From Cytophagales bacterium (GTDB lineage: Bacteria; Bacteroidota; Bacteroidia; Cytophagales; Cyclobacteriaceae), in assembly GCA_017303805.1 (NCBI GenBank), contig JAFLBQ010000003.1, positions 232,821 to 296,820 on the forward strand: DNA of 64,000 bases, written 5' to 3'. The notes beneath the pieces are model-generated. The model saw nothing but the letters and a program-made list of their open reading frames with translations. It did not search any database and was not told where the DNA came from. A program made the translations under genes and the position numbers. The stretch's first letter is position 1; each line of letters begins with the position of its first letter. Of the stretch, positions 18,743 through 24,842 are shown in pieces.

Positions 18743-19399
18743 GTGCTACGGCAACTTTTCCGCAAAGAACTTACCCTCGAACTCAGGCGCAAGGCCGTTA
18801 TTTCGGGCATTGCTTTGTACTTATGCAGCACCGTATTTATCTGTTATCTAACCTTTAGCCTGCGGCAAAATCAAATTACGCCACTGGTGTGGAGCGCGTT
18901 GTTTTGGGTAACCATTTTGTTTTCGGTAATCAATACGGTAGCCAAAAGTTTTTTGGGCGAAAAAAAAGGCCGCGAGATGTATTACTATTCCATAGCCTCG
19001 CCCACAGCCATCTTGCTTTCTAAAATGGGATATAATTTTCTGCTCATCACCCTGCTTTCGTTTAGCGGATGGCTTTTGTTTGTACTCTTCCTCAACAATC
19101 CGCTGGCCGATACCACCCTGTTTGCAGCTACACTGGTTTTAACCGCCCTTGGCTTTTCCACTTCACTCACGTTGCTATCGGCCCTCGCTGCCAAAGCCAA
19201 CCACAGTAATATTCTGATGGCCGTGCTCAGCTTTCCGGTAGTGATTTCGGTATTGCTGATTGCCATTAAGGTTACCAAAAATTGTATTGACGGGCTGGAC
19301 CGTTCTGTTAGTTACCCCGAACTGCTTACGTTGCTGGCAATTAATTGCCTGGTGGCGGCAGTGTCGTACCTGCTCTTCCCGTATATTTGGCGCAGTTAA
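18743..19399 (+). CDS. ccmB: Heme exporter protein B
   Basis: Six-TM pattern; KELTLELR, LFW..ILFS and L.FPVVI..L motifs; upstream of ccmC. Confidence 0.85.
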   Translation: MLRQLFRKELTLELRRKAVISGIALYLCSTVFICYLTFSLRQNQITPLVWSALFWVTILFSVINTVAKSFLGEKKGREMYYYSIASPTAILLSKMGYNFLLITLLSFSGWLLFVLFLNNPLADTTLFAATLVLTALGFSTSLTLLSALAAKANHSNILMAVLSFPVVISVLLIAIKVTKNCIDGLDRSVSYPELLTLLAINCLVAAVSYLLFPYIWRS

Positions 19400-19408
19400 A
19401 AAATTGAG

Positions 19409-20077
19409 ATGAAGACGTGGGCTAAGATCTTAAGTGTTGTTCTTCTGGTTTATACCATTGTAGCTGGCTTTTTATTTGACGTGCCGCGGCTTAACATTGT
19501 GAACGAAAGCATCCGCTCGCTGTACTTTCATGTGCCCATGTGGTTTGGTATGATTGCCCTCTTCACGGTGTCGTTGGGGTATTCTATTTTGTATTTAAAT
19601 AAGCCCAGCTTAAAATTTGATGCCTACGCGGTTGAGTTTGTACATACCGGCATTGTGTTAAACCTGTTGGGGTTAACCACGGGCATGATCTGGGCAAACT
19701 ACACGTGGGGTTCGCCCTGGCATGGCGACCCAAAGCAAAACGGTGCGGCTATCTCGCTGCTTATTTACCTCGCTTACTTTGTGCTGCGCGGCTCCATCGA
19801 CAACGAAGATCAGAAAGCCCGGCTGAGTGCCGTGTATAATATCTTTGCCTATGCCGCCATGGTTCCGTTGCTGTTCATCATTCCGCGCATGACCAGCTCG
19901 ATGCACCCCGGCAATGGCGGCAACCCCGGATTTAATATGTACGACTTAGACAGCCAGATGCGGCTGGTGTTTTATCCCGCTGTTATTGGCTGGGGACTAC
20001 TTGGTGCGTGGATAGCTACCTTGCGTGTGCGGATAAGATTAATTAATGAAAAACTTTCAAATCTTGAACATGACTAG
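19409..20077 (+). CDS. ccmC: Heme exporter protein C
   Basis: YFHVP heme His, Trp-rich WANYTWGSPWHGDPK and second His in SMHP. Confidence 0.88.
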   Translation: MKTWAKILSVVLLVYTIVAGFLFDVPRLNIVNESIRSLYFHVPMWFGMIALFTVSLGYSILYLNKPSLKFDAYAVEFVHTGIVLNLLGLTTGMIWANYTWGSPWHGDPKQNGAAISLLIYLAYFVLRGSIDNEDQKARLSAVYNIFAYAAMVPLLFIIPRMTSSMHPGNGGNPGFNMYDLDSQMRLVFYPAVIGWGLLGAWIATLRVRIRLINEKLSNLEHD

Positions 20078-20303
20078 AATTATTCGGCTTGTAATGGCTA
20101 TACTGATGCTGCCGCTTATACTTAATGCCCAACCGGTAGAAATGGCCGACACCATGCGCTCGGAAGGAAAGATTTATGTAGTAGTGGCAATTCTGCTCCT
20201 CATTTTTGCAGGCCTGATTGCCTACCTGGTAATGTTAGATCGGAAGATTACGAAGATTGAGAAACGATTATCCGATGAGCGCGGGCCTGATGCCGACCTG
20301 TAA
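20070..20303 (+). CDS. ccmD: CcmD-family small membrane protein
   Basis: MADTMRSEGKIYVVVAILLLIFAGLIAYLVMLDRKITKIEK: one TM followed by a basic helix, directly after ccmC. Start placed at ATG 20070. Confidence 0.75.
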   Translation: MTRIIRLVMAILMLPLILNAQPVEMADTMRSEGKIYVVVAILLLIFAGLIAYLVMLDRKITKIEKRLSDERGPDADL

Positions 20304-20342
20304 CGTTATTGAAATAAAACGCGCCTGTTGCTAGTTGCAGGT
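20296..20342 (-). repeat. Short or degenerate attC-like site after the lipocalin gene
   Basis: Minus strand ACCTGCAAC...GTTACAGGT (8/9 inverted match), 19 nt after the lipocalin stop. At 47 bp it is shorter than canonical attC sites. Confidence 0.45.
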
Positions 20343-20361
20343 GGGGGTTCGCACACAAATT

Positions 20362-20877
20362 TTAGTCTGCTCTAACCAAAACCCGCTTCCAGGTTTTATT
20401 ATCGCCAATGATTAGTGTGTCGCCTTTTAAAATAAATGGTCTTGGCTGTTCCGTGTCAATGTAGTTTGGGATAGTTCCACCCTTCACATGATGAGTTATT
20501 ATTGATTTTTCCCAGTTTACCGTGTAGAATCCAAAATATCCGAGTGCTGTTTTGTCTATATATTCATAAAGGTTAGGGAAATATTTCTTTGTTGAGTCTT
20601 CCGAAATTTTCAAAGGCTCCGCAGATGAGATATTTAAATTAACGATTTTGGTTTTGGTGTAGGTAAAATAACCCTTCGGGTTTTTACCGTAGCGATAAAT
20701 CCAGTTGCCGGTTAGAGAATCTAAGTCCGCAAATTCAATTAACTTCCAGGTGCCTGCCAATGTATTGCCGGGCATACTTTCGTTAGTGGTACTTTCTGCC
20801 TGCGGATAATTTTGTCTGCATGATGTGCCATAAAGTGTTAGTGCAGTCCAGAAAATTAAAAGTCGTACGGGTGTCAT
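20362..20877 (-). CDS. Lipocalin-like domain lipoprotein (cassette cargo)
   Basis: Lipobox-like GTSC; LAGTWKLIEF, G.NPKGYFTY and YFG.YTV...ITHHV...QPRPF.L.GDTL.I fit the Lipocalin_5-like pattern. Confidence 0.75.
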   Translation of the reverse strand: MTPVRLLIFWTALTLYGTSCRQNYPQAESTTNESMPGNTLAGTWKLIEFADLDSLTGNWIYRYGKNPKGYFTYTKTKIVNLNISSAEPLKISEDSTKKYFPNLYEYIDKTALGYFGFYTVNWEKSIITHHVKGGTIPNYIDTEQPRPFILKGDTLIIGDNKTWKRVLVRAD

Positions 20878-20952
20878 TTCTTTTCTTACGTTAGATTAAG
20901 TGTTCGCTTTTACCTGGACGGCAAGATTATAGACTGTAAATTTTACGGTTAC

Positions 20953-21083
20953 GGGTAACGGTTTGCGGCTTTGCGAAGAAGCGGATTTCGGAGAACAAAA
21001 CTGTCAACATAGCACAAAGTTGATTTGAAATCTACACTTGAATTTAAGCACTTCACCCCGCATGACCAAAACCCGTGTTACTG
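20953..21083 (-). repeat. attC-like recombination site, 131 bp
   Basis: Minus strand CAGTAAC (9 nt after the helicase stop) ... GTTACCC. Nested inverted segments: GGTTT/AAACC (20960-64/21069-73), GCGG/CCGC (20981-84/21058-61), GATTTC/GAAATC (20984-89/21027-32) and TCAAC/GTTGA (21004-08/21019-23). Confidence 0.65.
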
Positions 21084-21092
21084 GCTGGGCTT

Positions 21093-21664
21093 CTATCTGT
21101 CCGAGTTGTTTTCATGTCCGTTCCCTTTTACTTTTTGTCCGCAGTAAGGGCAAACAACCCATAGTTTTTCAAGTTGGCTGAAACAACTGTTGCAGGTAAT
21201 TATTTTGTCAACAACTGCTTTTATTGGCAGAGTCGTCCTAACGGTGAACGCTTCAGGAATTTCTCTTAAAAAACTTGATTCATTTCCCTTTTTCGGTAAT
21301 TAAGAAGAGTTTGTCTTTGGCTCTGGTATTTATATTTTTTTTGTTGAAGGTATCTTTCTCTGTCTTTATCAGCTTTACTTATTCTCTTGTCAAATAATAG
21401 CTTTTGGTAATCACCAGTATTGTCCGCTAAAATTATTAAGCGATCAATCATTTCATTTGTCGCATTTTTAGTGAATGTGATTGCCAAAATGCTTGAAGGA
21501 CTAACACCTTTTTCTTCTATGAGATAAACTAGCTTTTGTAAAAGTGTTTTTGTCTTGCCTGAACCAGCACCAGCTAAAACTAAAAGGCGTTTGTCCTCAC
21601 TTACAACAGCTTCATGTTGTCTGTCGTTTAATGCACTTAGATTTGTTTTAGTAGTTGTCGTCAC
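21093..21664 (-). pseudogene. UvrD/Rep-family helicase remnant with internal deletion, frameshift and C-terminal zinc ribbon
   Basis: Frame 1 has the Q motif LNDRQ, Walker A AGAGSGKT and motif Ia TFTKNA. Frame 2 from 21327 reads TRAKDKLFLITEKG (motif VI). Frame 3, 21284-21093, reads NESSFLREIP...CNSC...CPYCG...*. Confidence 0.85.
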
Positions 21665-21711
21665 GAAAAATCTGTTTTTTAATTACTGTTCTGTCGTCTT
21701 TTAAGCCCGGC

Positions 21712-21763
21712 CATTAACTCCTAAATATACGCATCTTTCATGCGCCTATCCACCTCGTTATGG
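21712..21763 (-). repeat. Degenerate attC-like site at the 5' boundary of the helicase cassette
   Basis: Minus strand CCATAAC-5 nt-GGATAGGC-GCATgaaagATGC-GTATATT-5 nt-GTTAATG (52 bp). L-box pairing is weak. Confidence 0.4.
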
Positions 21764-21855
21764 GGGCATTGGCGCATGGGTTGGCTTTAAAAAATTTGCG
21801 CTTTTAAGCCTCTTTAAATTCCCAACTTTTTAACACTTCAAGTGGTTTTACACTG

Positions 21856-21863
21856 TACCTTTG
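21856..21863 (+). promoter_or_regulatory. Bacteroidota -7 promoter element TACCTTTG upstream of ccmE
   Basis: Exact TAnnTTTG match, 24 nt before ATG 21888. Confidence 0.6.
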
Positions 21864-21887
21864 CCGCACAGTAAATCAGCAGCAGAA

Positions 21888-22301
21888 ATGAAGAAGTCGC
21901 ATATTTTTGCCCTCGTGGCCATCGCAGCCGCCATCGGTATCATCATCGCCAACACCGGTGATGCCAGCACCTATGTTTCGTTCGACCAGGCCTACCAGAT
22001 GGCCTCCACCGGCAACAAAACCCAATTGCACGTAGTGGGCGAGTTAAAGAAAGATGCCAACGGCCACATTACCGGCATCGAAAAGAGTGCCGATAAACTT
22101 TCGTTCTCGTTTATCCTGGTGGACGAAAACCAGAAAGAACAAAAAGTATATTACAACGAACCCATGCCGCCCGACTTTACCCGGTCTGAAAAAGTGGTGG
22201 TAATAGGCAGCTATCAAAACAATGCGTTCGTGGCCAGCAAAATTCTGCTCAAGTGCCCGTCCAAATACCAGGAAGAAAAAATTAACACCAGCAGTCTTTA
22301 G
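21888..22301 (+). CDS. ccmE: Cytochrome c maturation heme chaperone, Cys-type (CxxxY)
   Basis: N-terminal TM, OB-fold HVVGEL...PPDF..SEKVVVIG and LLKCPSKY heme motif; start ATG 21888. Confidence 0.9.
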   Translation: MKKSHIFALVAIAAAIGIIIANTGDASTYVSFDQAYQMASTGNKTQLHVVGELKKDANGHITGIEKSADKLSFSFILVDENQKEQKVYYNEPMPPDFTRSEKVVVIGSYQNNAFVASKILLKCPSKYQEEKINTSSL

Positions 22302-22322
22302 TCGTCTTTTAAAATCTAGGGA

Positions 22323-24842
22323 ATGCATTACTTCATCGGTGACCTCGGTCACTTCTTCATCATCCTCTCGTTTGTTACTTCGCTGGTAAGTGCGTTTGCC
22401 TATTGGAAAACCCTTTACAGCCCCGATGCAACGCGCGAACCGTGGCGCAAGAATGCACGCGCTGCATTTTATACGCACCTGGTTGCAGTGCTGGGCGTAG
22501 TCGTTTGCCTGTTTGTAATTATCTACCAGCACTACTTCGAATACCATTATGCCTACAGCCACTCCTCGCGCCACTTGCCCGGCCAATACATGGTGTCGTG
22601 CTTTTGGGAAGGCCAGGAAGGAAGCTTTTTGTTATGGATTTTCTGGCAAGCGTTAATTGGGTTGGTGTTGATTCACTCACAAAAAAAATGGGAAGCCCCT
22701 GTGATGGTGGTGTTCAGCCTGGTGCAGGCATTTCTGGCATCCATGATTCTGGGTGTAGTTATTCCTTTGTTGGATCTTAAACTTGGCAGTTCGCCCTTCA
22801 TCTTATTACGCGATGCCATCGATGATCCCATCTTTAGTCTGCAACCCGATTTTATCCCTAAAGATGGCAGCGGACTAAACCCGTTGCTACAAAATTATTG
22901 GATGGTGATTCATCCGCCCACGTTGTTTCTGGGTTTTGCTTTAACATTAGTGCCCTTCGCATTTTGTATCGCAGGTCTTTGGCAAAAGCAATATGCCGAA
23001 TGGATTAAACCCGCCTTGCCTTGGACCTTACTTGGTGCCGGCATTCTCGGACTTGGCATTTTAATGGGTGGCTATTGGGCGTACGAAACCTTAAACTTTG
23101 GCGGCTACTGGAATTGGGATCCCGTAGAAAATGCCGTGTACGTGCCGTGGCTGATTATGATTGCCTCCATCCACACCATGATTATCTATAAGAATAATCA
23201 AACTGCCCTTAAGAGTTCAGTTATTTTAGTGATAGCCGTTTTTGTATTGATTCTCTATTCAACTTTTTTAACACGCAGTGGTATTCTGGGCGATGCCTCC
23301 GTGCACTCCTTTACCGATCTCGGGTTATCGGGCCAACTCTTGATCTATCTTTTATTCTTTACAGGGGCTGCAATTGCATTGGCCGCCTGGCGCTGGAAAC
23401 AGTTGCCTACCTCCGAAAAAGAAACCGAAGTGTACTCGCGCGAGTTCTGGATTTTTTTGGGCGCTACCATACTTTGCTTCGCCGGGTTTCATGTAATCAT
23501 CCCTACTTCGTACCCGGTAATTAACGAAATGGGCAGTTGGTTTGGTTTGGATTTGCGTTTGGCCGTTCCCGGAGACCAGGTTCATTATTATTCACGCTAC
23601 CAAATCTGGTTTGGTGTGTTGGTGGCATTGGCTTCGGGCACAGCTCAGTTTTTCTGGTGGCGTAAAATCGATAAGCACAACCTGGTAAAAGAACTGCTGT
23701 ATCCGTTGTTGATTTCGCTGGTTGTATTTGCCCTTGTTATTTCGGTGGCCCGGATTTACAAACCCGCGTACCTGGTGCTTACGCTGGCCGGTGTATATTT
23801 AATTGTGTCTAATCTTAAGGTTCTCTTTCGGGTAACCAAAGTAAATAAATCGCTTTCGGGCGGAGCGGTTTCGCATGTAGGCGTGGGGCTTATGCTCATC
23901 GGCATTATGTTTTCGGCCGGTTACTCCAGCGTTGTTTCATTAAACAACACAGGCATGCTTATCTCAAAAGATTTGCCCACCGAGTTTAACCGCGATAACC
24001 TGTTGCTGTTTATACACGAACCGCGCGTAATGGCCGGCTACGAAATTGAATACCTGGGCGAGCGCGTAAAGCCCACCGGCCTGCGTGGCTATGTAAGCAA
24101 AAACGATCTTGATCTTACACCCGATCCGTACAAAGTAATCGCCACCAAAGACATCTATTTCAAAGACAAAAAAATTCTGAATGCCCGCGACACGTTCACG
24201 ATCAACCCGGAAAATACTTTTTACGAAGTAGAGCTTCGAAAAAACGGCAAGGTAGAAGCGGTTTTATTTCCACGGGTGCAGATTAACCCGGCTATGGGCG
24301 GCTTTGTAGCCTCGCCTGATATCGAGCGCCATGCCGATCGTGATTTATACACGCACGTATCGTTGCCCATGAACCGCGAAGAAGAACCCGAGTGGAGTGA
24401 GCTTACAGAAGAACGGGTGCAGTTGAATAAACCTTTTTTTGTAAACGACTACGTAGCTGCCCTGGAAGAGGTGGTGCGCATCCACGAAATAGATGGCTTT
24501 AAACTGAGCGATGACGATGTAGCAGTAAAGGCGAGGATAAAAGTGAAAGGCGAACGCGATGAGTATGTTGCAGAACCCATATTTTTAATTCGTAACAAAA
24601 GCCAGGTGGGCCGCATTCCTTCCGAAATAAATGACCTCGGGGTAAAAATTACTTTGCTCAACATCCACCCCGATGCGGGCGAGTTCTCACTCGGCATCAA
24701 CACCCGCCAAAAAGATTGGGTAATTATTAAAGCCATCGAAATGCCTTTGATAAATGTATTGTGGTTGGGCACCGGGGTGCTGATGGTGGGCTTTACCGTA
24801 GCGCTGGTGCGCAGGTTTAAAGAGTTTGGTAAGGAGAAATAA
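22323..24842 (+). CDS. ccmF: Cytochrome c heme lyase CcmF (long form)
   Basis: WEGQEGSFLLW, GLNPLLQNYWMVIHPP, GGYWNWDPVEN, FLTRSG..SVHSF and SHVG motifs. Confidence 0.93.
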   Translation: MHYFIGDLGHFFIILSFVTSLVSAFAYWKTLYSPDATREPWRKNARAAFYTHLVAVLGVVVCLFVIIYQHYFEYHYAYSHSSRHLPGQYMVSCFWEGQEGSFLLWIFWQALIGLVLIHSQKKWEAPVMVVFSLVQAFLASMILGVVIPLLDLKLGSSPFILLRDAIDDPIFSLQPDFIPKDGSGLNPLLQNYWMVIHPPTLFLGFALTLVPFAFCIAGLWQKQYAEWIKPALPWTLLGAGILGLGILMGGYWAYETLNFGGYWNWDPVENAVYVPWLIMIASIHTMIIYKNNQTALKSSVILVIAVFVLILYSTFLTRSGILGDASVHSFTDLGLSGQLLIYLLFFTGAAIALAAWRWKQLPTSEKETEVYSREFWIFLGATILCFAGFHVIIPTSYPVINEMGSWFGLDLRLAVPGDQVHYYSRYQIWFGVLVALASGTAQFFWWRKIDKHNLVKELLYPLLISLVVFALVISVARIYKPAYLVLTLAGVYLIVSNLKVLFRVTKVNKSLSGGAVSHVGVGLMLIGIMFSAGYSSVVSLNNTGMLISKDLPTEFNRDNLLLFIHEPRVMAGYEIEYLGERVKPTGLRGYVSKNDLDLTPDPYKVIATKDIYFKDKKILNARDTFTINPENTFYEVELRKNGKVEAVLFPRVQINPAMGGFVASPDIERHADRDLYTHVSLPMNREEEPEWSELTEERVQLNKPFFVNDYVAALEEVVRIHEIDGFKLSDDDVAVKARIKVKGERDEYVAEPIFLIRNKSQVGRIPSEINDLGVKITLLNIHPDAGEFSLGINTRQKDWVIIKAIEMPLINVLWLGTGVLMVGFTVALVRRFKEFGKEK

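Follow-up and report, generated by a model that had tools for sequence, protein, structure and literature searches.

A probable orphan mini-array of an integron-type gene-capture system between ccmD and ccmE of a Cytophagales bacterium

The integron integrase IntI is defined by an extra domain, and a survey of tyrosine recombinases described this insertion as "not fully conserved" in an integron-like subgroup. In Bacteroidetes, IntegronFinder 2.0 reported only In0 elements and one complete integron (Salinibacter). Cassettes are also found away from integrases: clusters of attC sites lacking an integron-integrase (CALINs) are thought to arise via integrase loss, and isolated cassettes, counted as single attC sites lacking an integron-integrase (SALINs), were discussed by Loot et al. 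together with insertion at attG sites. The locus described here lies in a stretch of 64,000 nucleotides of a Cytophagales bacterium genome (hereafter the window, meaning the whole stretch that was analysed), in which a spacer of 1.58 kb separates ccmD from ccmE and carries two genes, both on the minus strand. A sequence-only reading of the window had proposed that this insert is an integrase-less, integron-like cassette array with three attC-like sites. We estimate a probability of roughly 0.8 that the insert is an orphan mini-array of a Bacteroidota integron-type gene-capture system whose recombinase is encoded elsewhere. In window coordinates, the insert and its two flanking genes comprise the following features.

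20046–20303, plus strand: ccmD (CcmD_alt; Pfam PF20077, E 1e-20), bordering the array at its distal end
20296–20342, minus strand: distal end, a "short attC-like" segment with R-box-like ends ACCTGCAAC...GTTACAGGT and no L stem
20362–20877, minus strand: gene of cassette 2, an intact Lipocalin_5 gene of 171 aa (PF13924, E 9.5e-17)
20953–21083, minus strand: attC of cassette 1, 131 bp, with R'' CAGTAAC at 21083–21077 and R' GTTACCC at 20959–20953
21093–21664, minus strand: gene of cassette 1, a UvrD-like helicase pseudogene (PF00580, positions 1–70 only)
21714–21778, minus strand: putative attI-like head, CATGCGCC...GGTGGATAGGCGCA-N7-TGCGTATATTTAGGA followed by GTTA, with the crossover GTT at 21718–21716
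21856–21863, plus strand: promoter-like box TACCTTTG of the Bacteroidota −7 type, 25 nt upstream of the ccmE ATG, native and retained
21888–22301, plus strand: ccmE (PF03100), bordering the array at its head; the encoded protein is 94% identical to that of the sister species (genome G011)

The middle one of the three proposed sites is a genuine attC, and the coordinates first assigned to it coincide exactly with its R'' and R' boxes. The site begins 9 nt past the TAG of the zinc-ribbon frame in the helicase pseudogene, and its folding (bottom) strand is the plus strand of the window. A covariance model trained on 25 copies from the rest of the genome, with the window copy excluded, gave a single match in the 64-kb window (20945–21092, plus strand, 65.5 bits, E 3e-18). 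A BLAST search of the genome recovered three more copies, and iterated nhmmer searching brought the family to 56, so that the genome holds at least 56 attC sites. The idea that the 131-bp element might recur behind unrelated open reading frames (ORFs) was borne out by about 55 other copies, which follow genes that include orphans, an Eco57I-type methylase gene and a gene for a T5orf172 protein. Copies are co-oriented inside clusters, and the clusters have an ORF-site-ORF-site layout in which each site starts from a few to about 30 nt from a stop codon. Many copies lie at contig ends, as would be expected if repeated arrays broke the assembly.

The structure of the family was assessed using the 25-copy alignment. 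RNAalifold predicted a 21-pair hairpin with compensatory changes at 17 of the 21 pairs, and the AAC and GTT near the two ends were invariant. The absence of any hairpin, which had been named as grounds for abandoning the cassette proposal, was therefore not what was found. The sites carry R'' RYYYAAC and R' GTTRRRY boxes, and their L''/L' stem is held by structure and not by sequence. The suspicion of an atypical attC geometry was right in part: the architecture of R boxes, unpaired spacer, L stem and variable loop is canonical, whereas the sites are long (133–180 nt, with R-box pairing extending over about 15 bp) and mostly lack extrahelical bases. Arm-versus-arm alignments of 47 copies, judged by eye, showed no stem bulge in most of them and a single bulge, in either arm, in a minority; the two or three extrahelical bottom-strand bases of attC sites are not a feature of this family. 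Instead, the family conserves an asymmetric unpaired spacer and a G-T wobble, and a second conserved wobble of the same polarity is present in the L stem. An Rfam scan of positions 19500–22500 with E-values up to 10 returned noise only. The window copy itself is decayed and its fold is lost: 6 of its 21 pairs are non-standard, and its folding z-score is −0.7 versus about −2.8 for copies in arrays. With a degraded site and a chance-level fold, the locus is therefore probably inactive now.

Crossover in integrons takes place at G↓TT, so that the 5' end of every cassette is formed by the rest of R' and the 3' end by R''. Accordingly, the 12 nt past the GTT of one site were compared with the 12 nt preceding the AAC of the next. 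Complementarity between consecutive sites averaged 8.3 of 12 positions, with at least 9 in 21 of 31 pairs. The two ends of the same site gave a mean of 4.5 (at least 9 in 2 of 45) and random pairs a mean of 4.2 (at least 9 in 3.3%). True pairs usually matched at 10–11 of 12 positions with one constant mismatch (C-A in the top strand, a T-G wobble in the bottom strand). Moreover, the head of the window array and the attC at 21083 are complementary at 10 of 12 positions (the 14/16 inverted repeat I12), and at 8 of the 12 head loci tested, the window included, the 12 nt after the head GTT pair at 10–11 of 12 positions with those before the AAC of the first attC. Judged from these sequence comparisons, the signature appears to mark cassettes that integrated as circles at G↓TT.

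The front of the array (site 1) is best read as an attI-like head. It holds TGCGC-type inverted boxes and a TATATTTA box directed into the array. In G011, the same block is found at the same position before ccmE, and it also heads two more arrays beside housekeeping genes. The motif heads arrays in G011, in a further genome (G032) and in the genome studied here, and similarity stops right after the GTT. A search for the core TGCGTATATTTnGGAGTT with one mismatch allowed found 1 copy in this genome, 10 in G011, 5 in G032, 2 in G013 and 1–2 in a few other genomes; reversed-pattern controls gave zero matches. A correctly oriented attC was present on the GTT side of 12 of the 15 assessable copies. 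One head in G011, at the start of contig G011:C36, lies about 135 nt upstream of a divergent IntI-like gene, which is the canonical integron layout and the only copy with an integrase adjacent to it. In addition, the site beside the main integrase of this genome, on contig C8, has the related core TGCATATATTCGGAC followed by GTT, which is conserved with G011 up to the GTT. Site 1 thus resembles attI in heading an array, in conservation that ends at the crossover and in a first cassette joined at G↓TT. The shared block, the downstream attC sites, the pairing between head and attC, the IntI-like neighbour in G011 and the related core on C8 are the reasons for reading it as an attI-like head. The core carries TATATTTR, which in several copies equals TAnnTTTG pointing into the array, so the head may act as a promoter of the array.

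Site 1 had originally been proposed as an attC at 21763–21712. As an attC it was rejected, with a covariance score of 0.6 bits on the wrong strand (filters off) and a fold at chance level. Both site 1 and the distal site 3 fold like shuffled sequence (z −0.5 to −1.6), and a general inverted-repeat search of the insert did not single out either. Since the covariance model does find short attC sites (69–85 nt) elsewhere, length alone does not explain their low scores. As separate observations on heads, a subgroup in G011 (L124:8880–8953, L125:2880–2963 and L129:2260–2345) has 75 nt or more in common upstream of the core and carries ATATTTAGGAG twice, about 47 nt apart, which recalls the extra integrase-binding repeats of attI1. 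G032 has five headed arrays (L131–L135), and its sole strong integrase match is partial, with an internal stop (G032:C12:834–1460).

As the sequence-only reading had stated, the array between ccmD and ccmE is integrase-less: neither a recombinase gene nor an integrase fragment was found on the window contig (C7). A search of the genome with an integron-integrase model found no canonical IntI; it returned two sub-threshold relatives (225 and 208 bits against a TIGR02249 cut-off of 265) and XerC/D-like genes. The anticipated IntI-like recombinase was thus present as two paralogues on other contigs, both of which fall under that cut-off. IntI-like matches were confined to contigs C8, C10 and C6. 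The relevant features are as follows.

C8:384490–385689 (L009:1491–2690): IntI-like recombinase of 399 aa, directly upstream of a co-oriented array
L009:2700–2815: candidate attI of the C8 integrase, AAATATATGCACATGTGCATATATTCGGAC followed by GTT, conserved with G011 up to the GTT
C10:219–1250 (L010:219–1250): the other IntI-like gene, a paralogue of 343 aa with 46% identity to the C8 protein, 219 nt from the contig start; its downstream side falls in the assembly gap

The array behind the C8 recombinase spans at least 37 kb and reaches the contig end. The best solved relative of this recombinase is VchIntIA (PDB 2a3v, E 3e-43); its GLRRSE, GKGRKDR, HTLRHSFATH and EIYT motifs align with 2a3v by eye, and it matches PF00589 and PF13495. 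The IntI-specific insertion (I2 helix, patch III) is absent, with 14 residues versus 57 in 2a3v (residues 183–239), and TIGR02249 positions 180–237 are unmatched. None of 80 relatives in the family is long enough to hold the insertion. The C8 protein is also extended by about 110 aa at its N-terminus. The loci of these 80 relatives, which span Flavobacteriales, Cytophagales-like groups, Saprospiraceae, Crocinitomicaceae and other groups across Bacteroidota, contained 83 attC matches, all co-oriented with the recombinase gene and all but one downstream of it. An integrase beside an attI and an array is therefore found at C8:384490–385689 and in its relatives across the phylum, but not in the window. 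No close copy of the G011:C36 recombinase, which sits beside a ccm-type head, was detected in this genome (best match 40% identical), and its absence fits decay of the ccm array.

Comparison with related genomes provided a clean empty site. In seven genomes of the same genus, the ccmD–ccmE spacer is 60–130 nt long and the insert is absent, so the suggestion that relatives might carry the same genes without the sites does not hold; the insert genes are missing as well. G011, the closest relative and about 80–83% identical in the ccm genes, has an insert of 2.4 kb at this position too. The head is shared, but the genes (an SPFH-domain protein and three orphans), the attC and the short distal site all differ from those in the window. 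Similarity between the window and G011 is unbroken from ccmE through the head, which favours a head that arrived once, in an ancestor, and whose cassettes changed afterwards. Furthermore, the presence of different cassettes behind the same head in the sister species makes mobilisation in trans, as originally proposed, plausible. The higher AT content noted at the outset was also confirmed, with a guanine-cytosine (GC) content of 0.385 in the insert versus 0.473 in the ccm genes on both flanks.

Taken together, the minus strand would read as an attI-like head ending in G↓TT, the helicase pseudogene with its attC, the lipocalin gene and a degenerate end at the ccmD stop. A tyrosine recombinase would have inserted circular cassettes through a G↓TT crossover of a folded attC with the head, and because the recombinase is encoded elsewhere, the array would have been serviced in trans. 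Both recombination activity and action in trans are proposed here from the arrangement of genes and sites. Several points weigh against an orphan mini-array of this kind. The covariance model was trained on the genome's own copies and its E-values are rough; the window attC is degraded, with a fold at the level of shuffled sequence; and it is the single detectable attC, cassette 2 having no recognisable attC of its own. Two head copies in G011 and both copies in G013 have no detectable attC nearby. Recombination itself is inferred, a single integrase serving many heads is not known to be established for classical integrons, and the reading gives no account of how the heads came to be dispersed. 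A broader scheme is offered tentatively, and we consider it somewhat doubtful as a whole. According to it, the system would be a multi-copy platform in which attI-like heads with a TAnnTTTG-type box are scattered beside housekeeping genes, each with an array of its own, and one I2-less integrase encoded elsewhere acts in trans; the attC strand would be chosen through the asymmetry of the G-T wobbles in place of extrahelical bases, and the ccm locus would be a satellite left after loss of its cognate integrase.

Three other explanations were weighed against the orphan mini-array. The locus might once have been a complete integron, with an integrase gene beside the head on the ccmE side that was subsequently deleted in place. 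Such a classical CALIN origin would agree with the view that CALINs originate by integrase loss and with the canonical layout of the G011:C36 head and its divergent IntI-like gene. However, the interval between the head and the ccmE ATG is only about 109 nt long and includes the native promoter-like box of ccmE; the contig holds no integrase fragment, the G011 junction is equally integrase-less, and at least 12 other heads in G011 and G032 have no adjacent integrase. We therefore regard deletion in place as unlikely. It seems slightly less probable still that an integrase put free cassettes into a non-att site (the attG or secondary-site route of Loot et al.), the head being mere target DNA. 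Isolated one- or two-cassette elements are common and have been proposed to originate in this way, and the element in the window is indeed small and isolated. Nevertheless, the 40–65 nt upstream of the crossover form a conserved motif that stands at unrelated array heads in three genomes and is absent from the seven empty spacers, different cassettes lie behind the same head in G011, and an attG insertion should leave a complete distal attC, of which there is none.

The most improbable explanation, to which we give very little credence, is that the insert is an ordinary horizontally acquired islet and the 131-bp element a repeat resembling a repetitive extragenic palindrome (REP), a miniature inverted-repeat transposable element (MITE) or a terminator, with no role in site-specific recombination. 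The chance-level fold of the window copy, the lack of a matching Rfam family and an AT-rich composition like that of any foreign DNA are all compatible with it. A passive repeat, however, leaves unaccounted for the offset complementarity of consecutive sites, the conserved AAC and GTT cores, the orientation strictly shared with ORFs and the constant position of the sites downstream of a single recombinase family at 80 loci.

The gene of cassette 1 had been described as a helicase remnant, and this description was upheld. Its N-terminal ORF (21266–21664) encodes 132 aa and is followed by a C-terminal zinc-ribbon fragment (21093–21263). The first ~110 codons are fused out of frame to the last ~70 through an internal deletion of about 1.6 kb, and an extra frameshift precedes the zinc-ribbon fragment, whose stop is the TAG at 21095–21093. 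An intact homologue of 722 aa, with a CxxC...CPYCG zinc-ribbon end and followed by an attC, is present in a genome from another family of the same order (G026; L036:1723–3891). As side observations (L036:1547–1695), that helicase cassette directly follows an RNase H-like gene, and its attC has TTT in place of the GTT of R', so the cassette is probably fixed. The helicase cassettes are 76–78% identical in nucleotide sequence across the two families; this exceeds the identity of ccmF (67%) and points to horizontal transfer. The product of the cassette 2 gene is probably a lipoprotein, as its predicted N-terminal signal ends in Cys. No lipocalin paralogue was found in the genome, and a homologue, a partial match only, was found in 1 of 300 other genomes of the order. 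Elsewhere in the genome, a large cassette of the main array (L009:7964–12028) carries the Eco57I-type methylase and the T5orf172-domain protein and is defence-like. Defence genes have been reported in cassettes of sedentary integrons.

The distal end (site 3) is in the right orientation; it scored 3.9 bits (E 0.83) with the covariance model and gave folding z-scores of −0.5 and −1.2. As the attC of the lipocalin cassette it was rejected, since its putative R'' has no complementarity, by eye, to the 5' end of cassette 2. At best, it may be a collapsed remnant. The three attC-like sites of the sequence-only reading therefore had different outcomes: the middle one stands as an attC, site 1 is reassigned to the attI-like head and site 3 is unsupported. 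"Half" attC matches, in which the R''/L'' side and a portion of the loop are all that is kept, were also seen elsewhere in this genome (G000), namely at L013:2780–2873 (G000 C4:47779–47872), G000 C7:7415–7505, C3:2695–2788, C10:22349–22442 and C6:619265–619353. Several of them are the last site of an array or solitary, and truncation may be systematic at the distal ends of arrays.

The remaining features of the locus are as follows.

C7:232821–296820: the window, in a genome of 4.29 Mb, 13 contigs and GC 0.45
18743–19399, plus strand: ccmB
19409–20077, plus strand: ccmC
22323–24842, plus strand: ccmF

The gene order is thus ccmB, ccmC and ccmD on the plus strand, the Lipocalin_5 ORF and the UvrD N-terminal ORF on the minus strand, and then ccmE and ccmF. 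The start of ccmE is likely the ATG at 21888 (MKKSHIF..., matching relatives) and not the TTG at 21861 given by the ORF finder. TAnnTTTG is the Bacteroidota −7 promoter consensus, and a box of this form precedes ccmE in 8 of the 9 genomes compared (6 of the 7 same-genus relatives, the window and G011). Because this box is retained, expression of ccmE–ccmF was probably left intact despite the insertion. The assertion that the array splits the ccm operon is accordingly not obvious, as ccmE has kept its own promoter-like box. A scan for sigma-70-type promoters and terminators gave chance-level results. In a separate observation, the C-terminus of ccmD is longer than, and divergent from, those of relatives after ...KIEK (…SDERGPDADL, window 20270–20303); an indel moves the frame beyond the stop position of G011, and the gene ends with the TAA within TGTAACG at the array junction. 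The locus is a decaying remnant with little functional weight for cytochrome c maturation.

The wider interest lies in what the genome contains, which is a full system for capturing cassettes that combines 56 or more attC sites, a circular-integration signature and a recombinase without the IntI-defining domain. To the large arrays, the ccm locus adds the clean empty-site comparison and the many integrase-less copies of its head. It also offers the best available in-silico sign of turnover, namely an orthologous position at which two species share the head but differ in their cassettes. If confirmed, the system would widen the definition of an integron, and arrays in a major environmental and gut-associated phylum would have been systematically under-counted. 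In a literature search whose coverage was outside subscription journals, no I2-less integron system was found described for Bacteroidota, and the system behind the locus appears to be undescribed in the literature searched.

Among known systems, sedentary chromosomal integrons of the "inverted integrase" layout, such as that of Treponema denticola, and large arrays such as the Vibrio cholerae superintegron with its V. cholerae repeats (VCRs) have the same promoter-less, mostly single-gene cassettes and imperfect hairpin sites. These systems also share the RYYYAAC...GTTRRRY cores, the G↓TT crossover and a VchIntIA-like recombinase beside an attI-type site, and, as in the "inverted integrase" layout, the main-array integrase is co-directional with its cassettes. 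Unlike in those systems, the recombinase lacks the IntI-specific insertion, scores 225 bits against the TIGR02249 cut-off of 265 and has the ~110-aa N-terminal extension, the attC sites are 133–180 nt long with wobbles replacing the regular extrahelical bases, and many heads are integrase-less.

The label CALIN, used in the sequence-only reading, does not fit: the locus has no nearby integrase, but one significant attC in the 64-kb window falls short of the two or more clustered sites of a CALIN and makes it a SALIN by the IntegronFinder count. Like the CALINs and SALINs of Cury et al. (2016), Néron et al. (2022) and Loot et al. (2023), the locus has cassettes with attC that are far from an integrase, intergenic, small and partly degraded. 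Unlike them, it keeps an attI-like head, a feature predicted neither by integrase loss nor by attG insertion, and it has two genes with one attC. The head resembles classical attI sites, such as attI1 with its simple site and direct repeats, in standing at the front of the array, in being conserved up to G↓TT and in having several short repeated boxes. It differs from known attI sites in having no sequence similarity to them, in being multi-copy and in mostly lacking an adjacent integrase, and its boxes are candidate binding sites for the recombinase.

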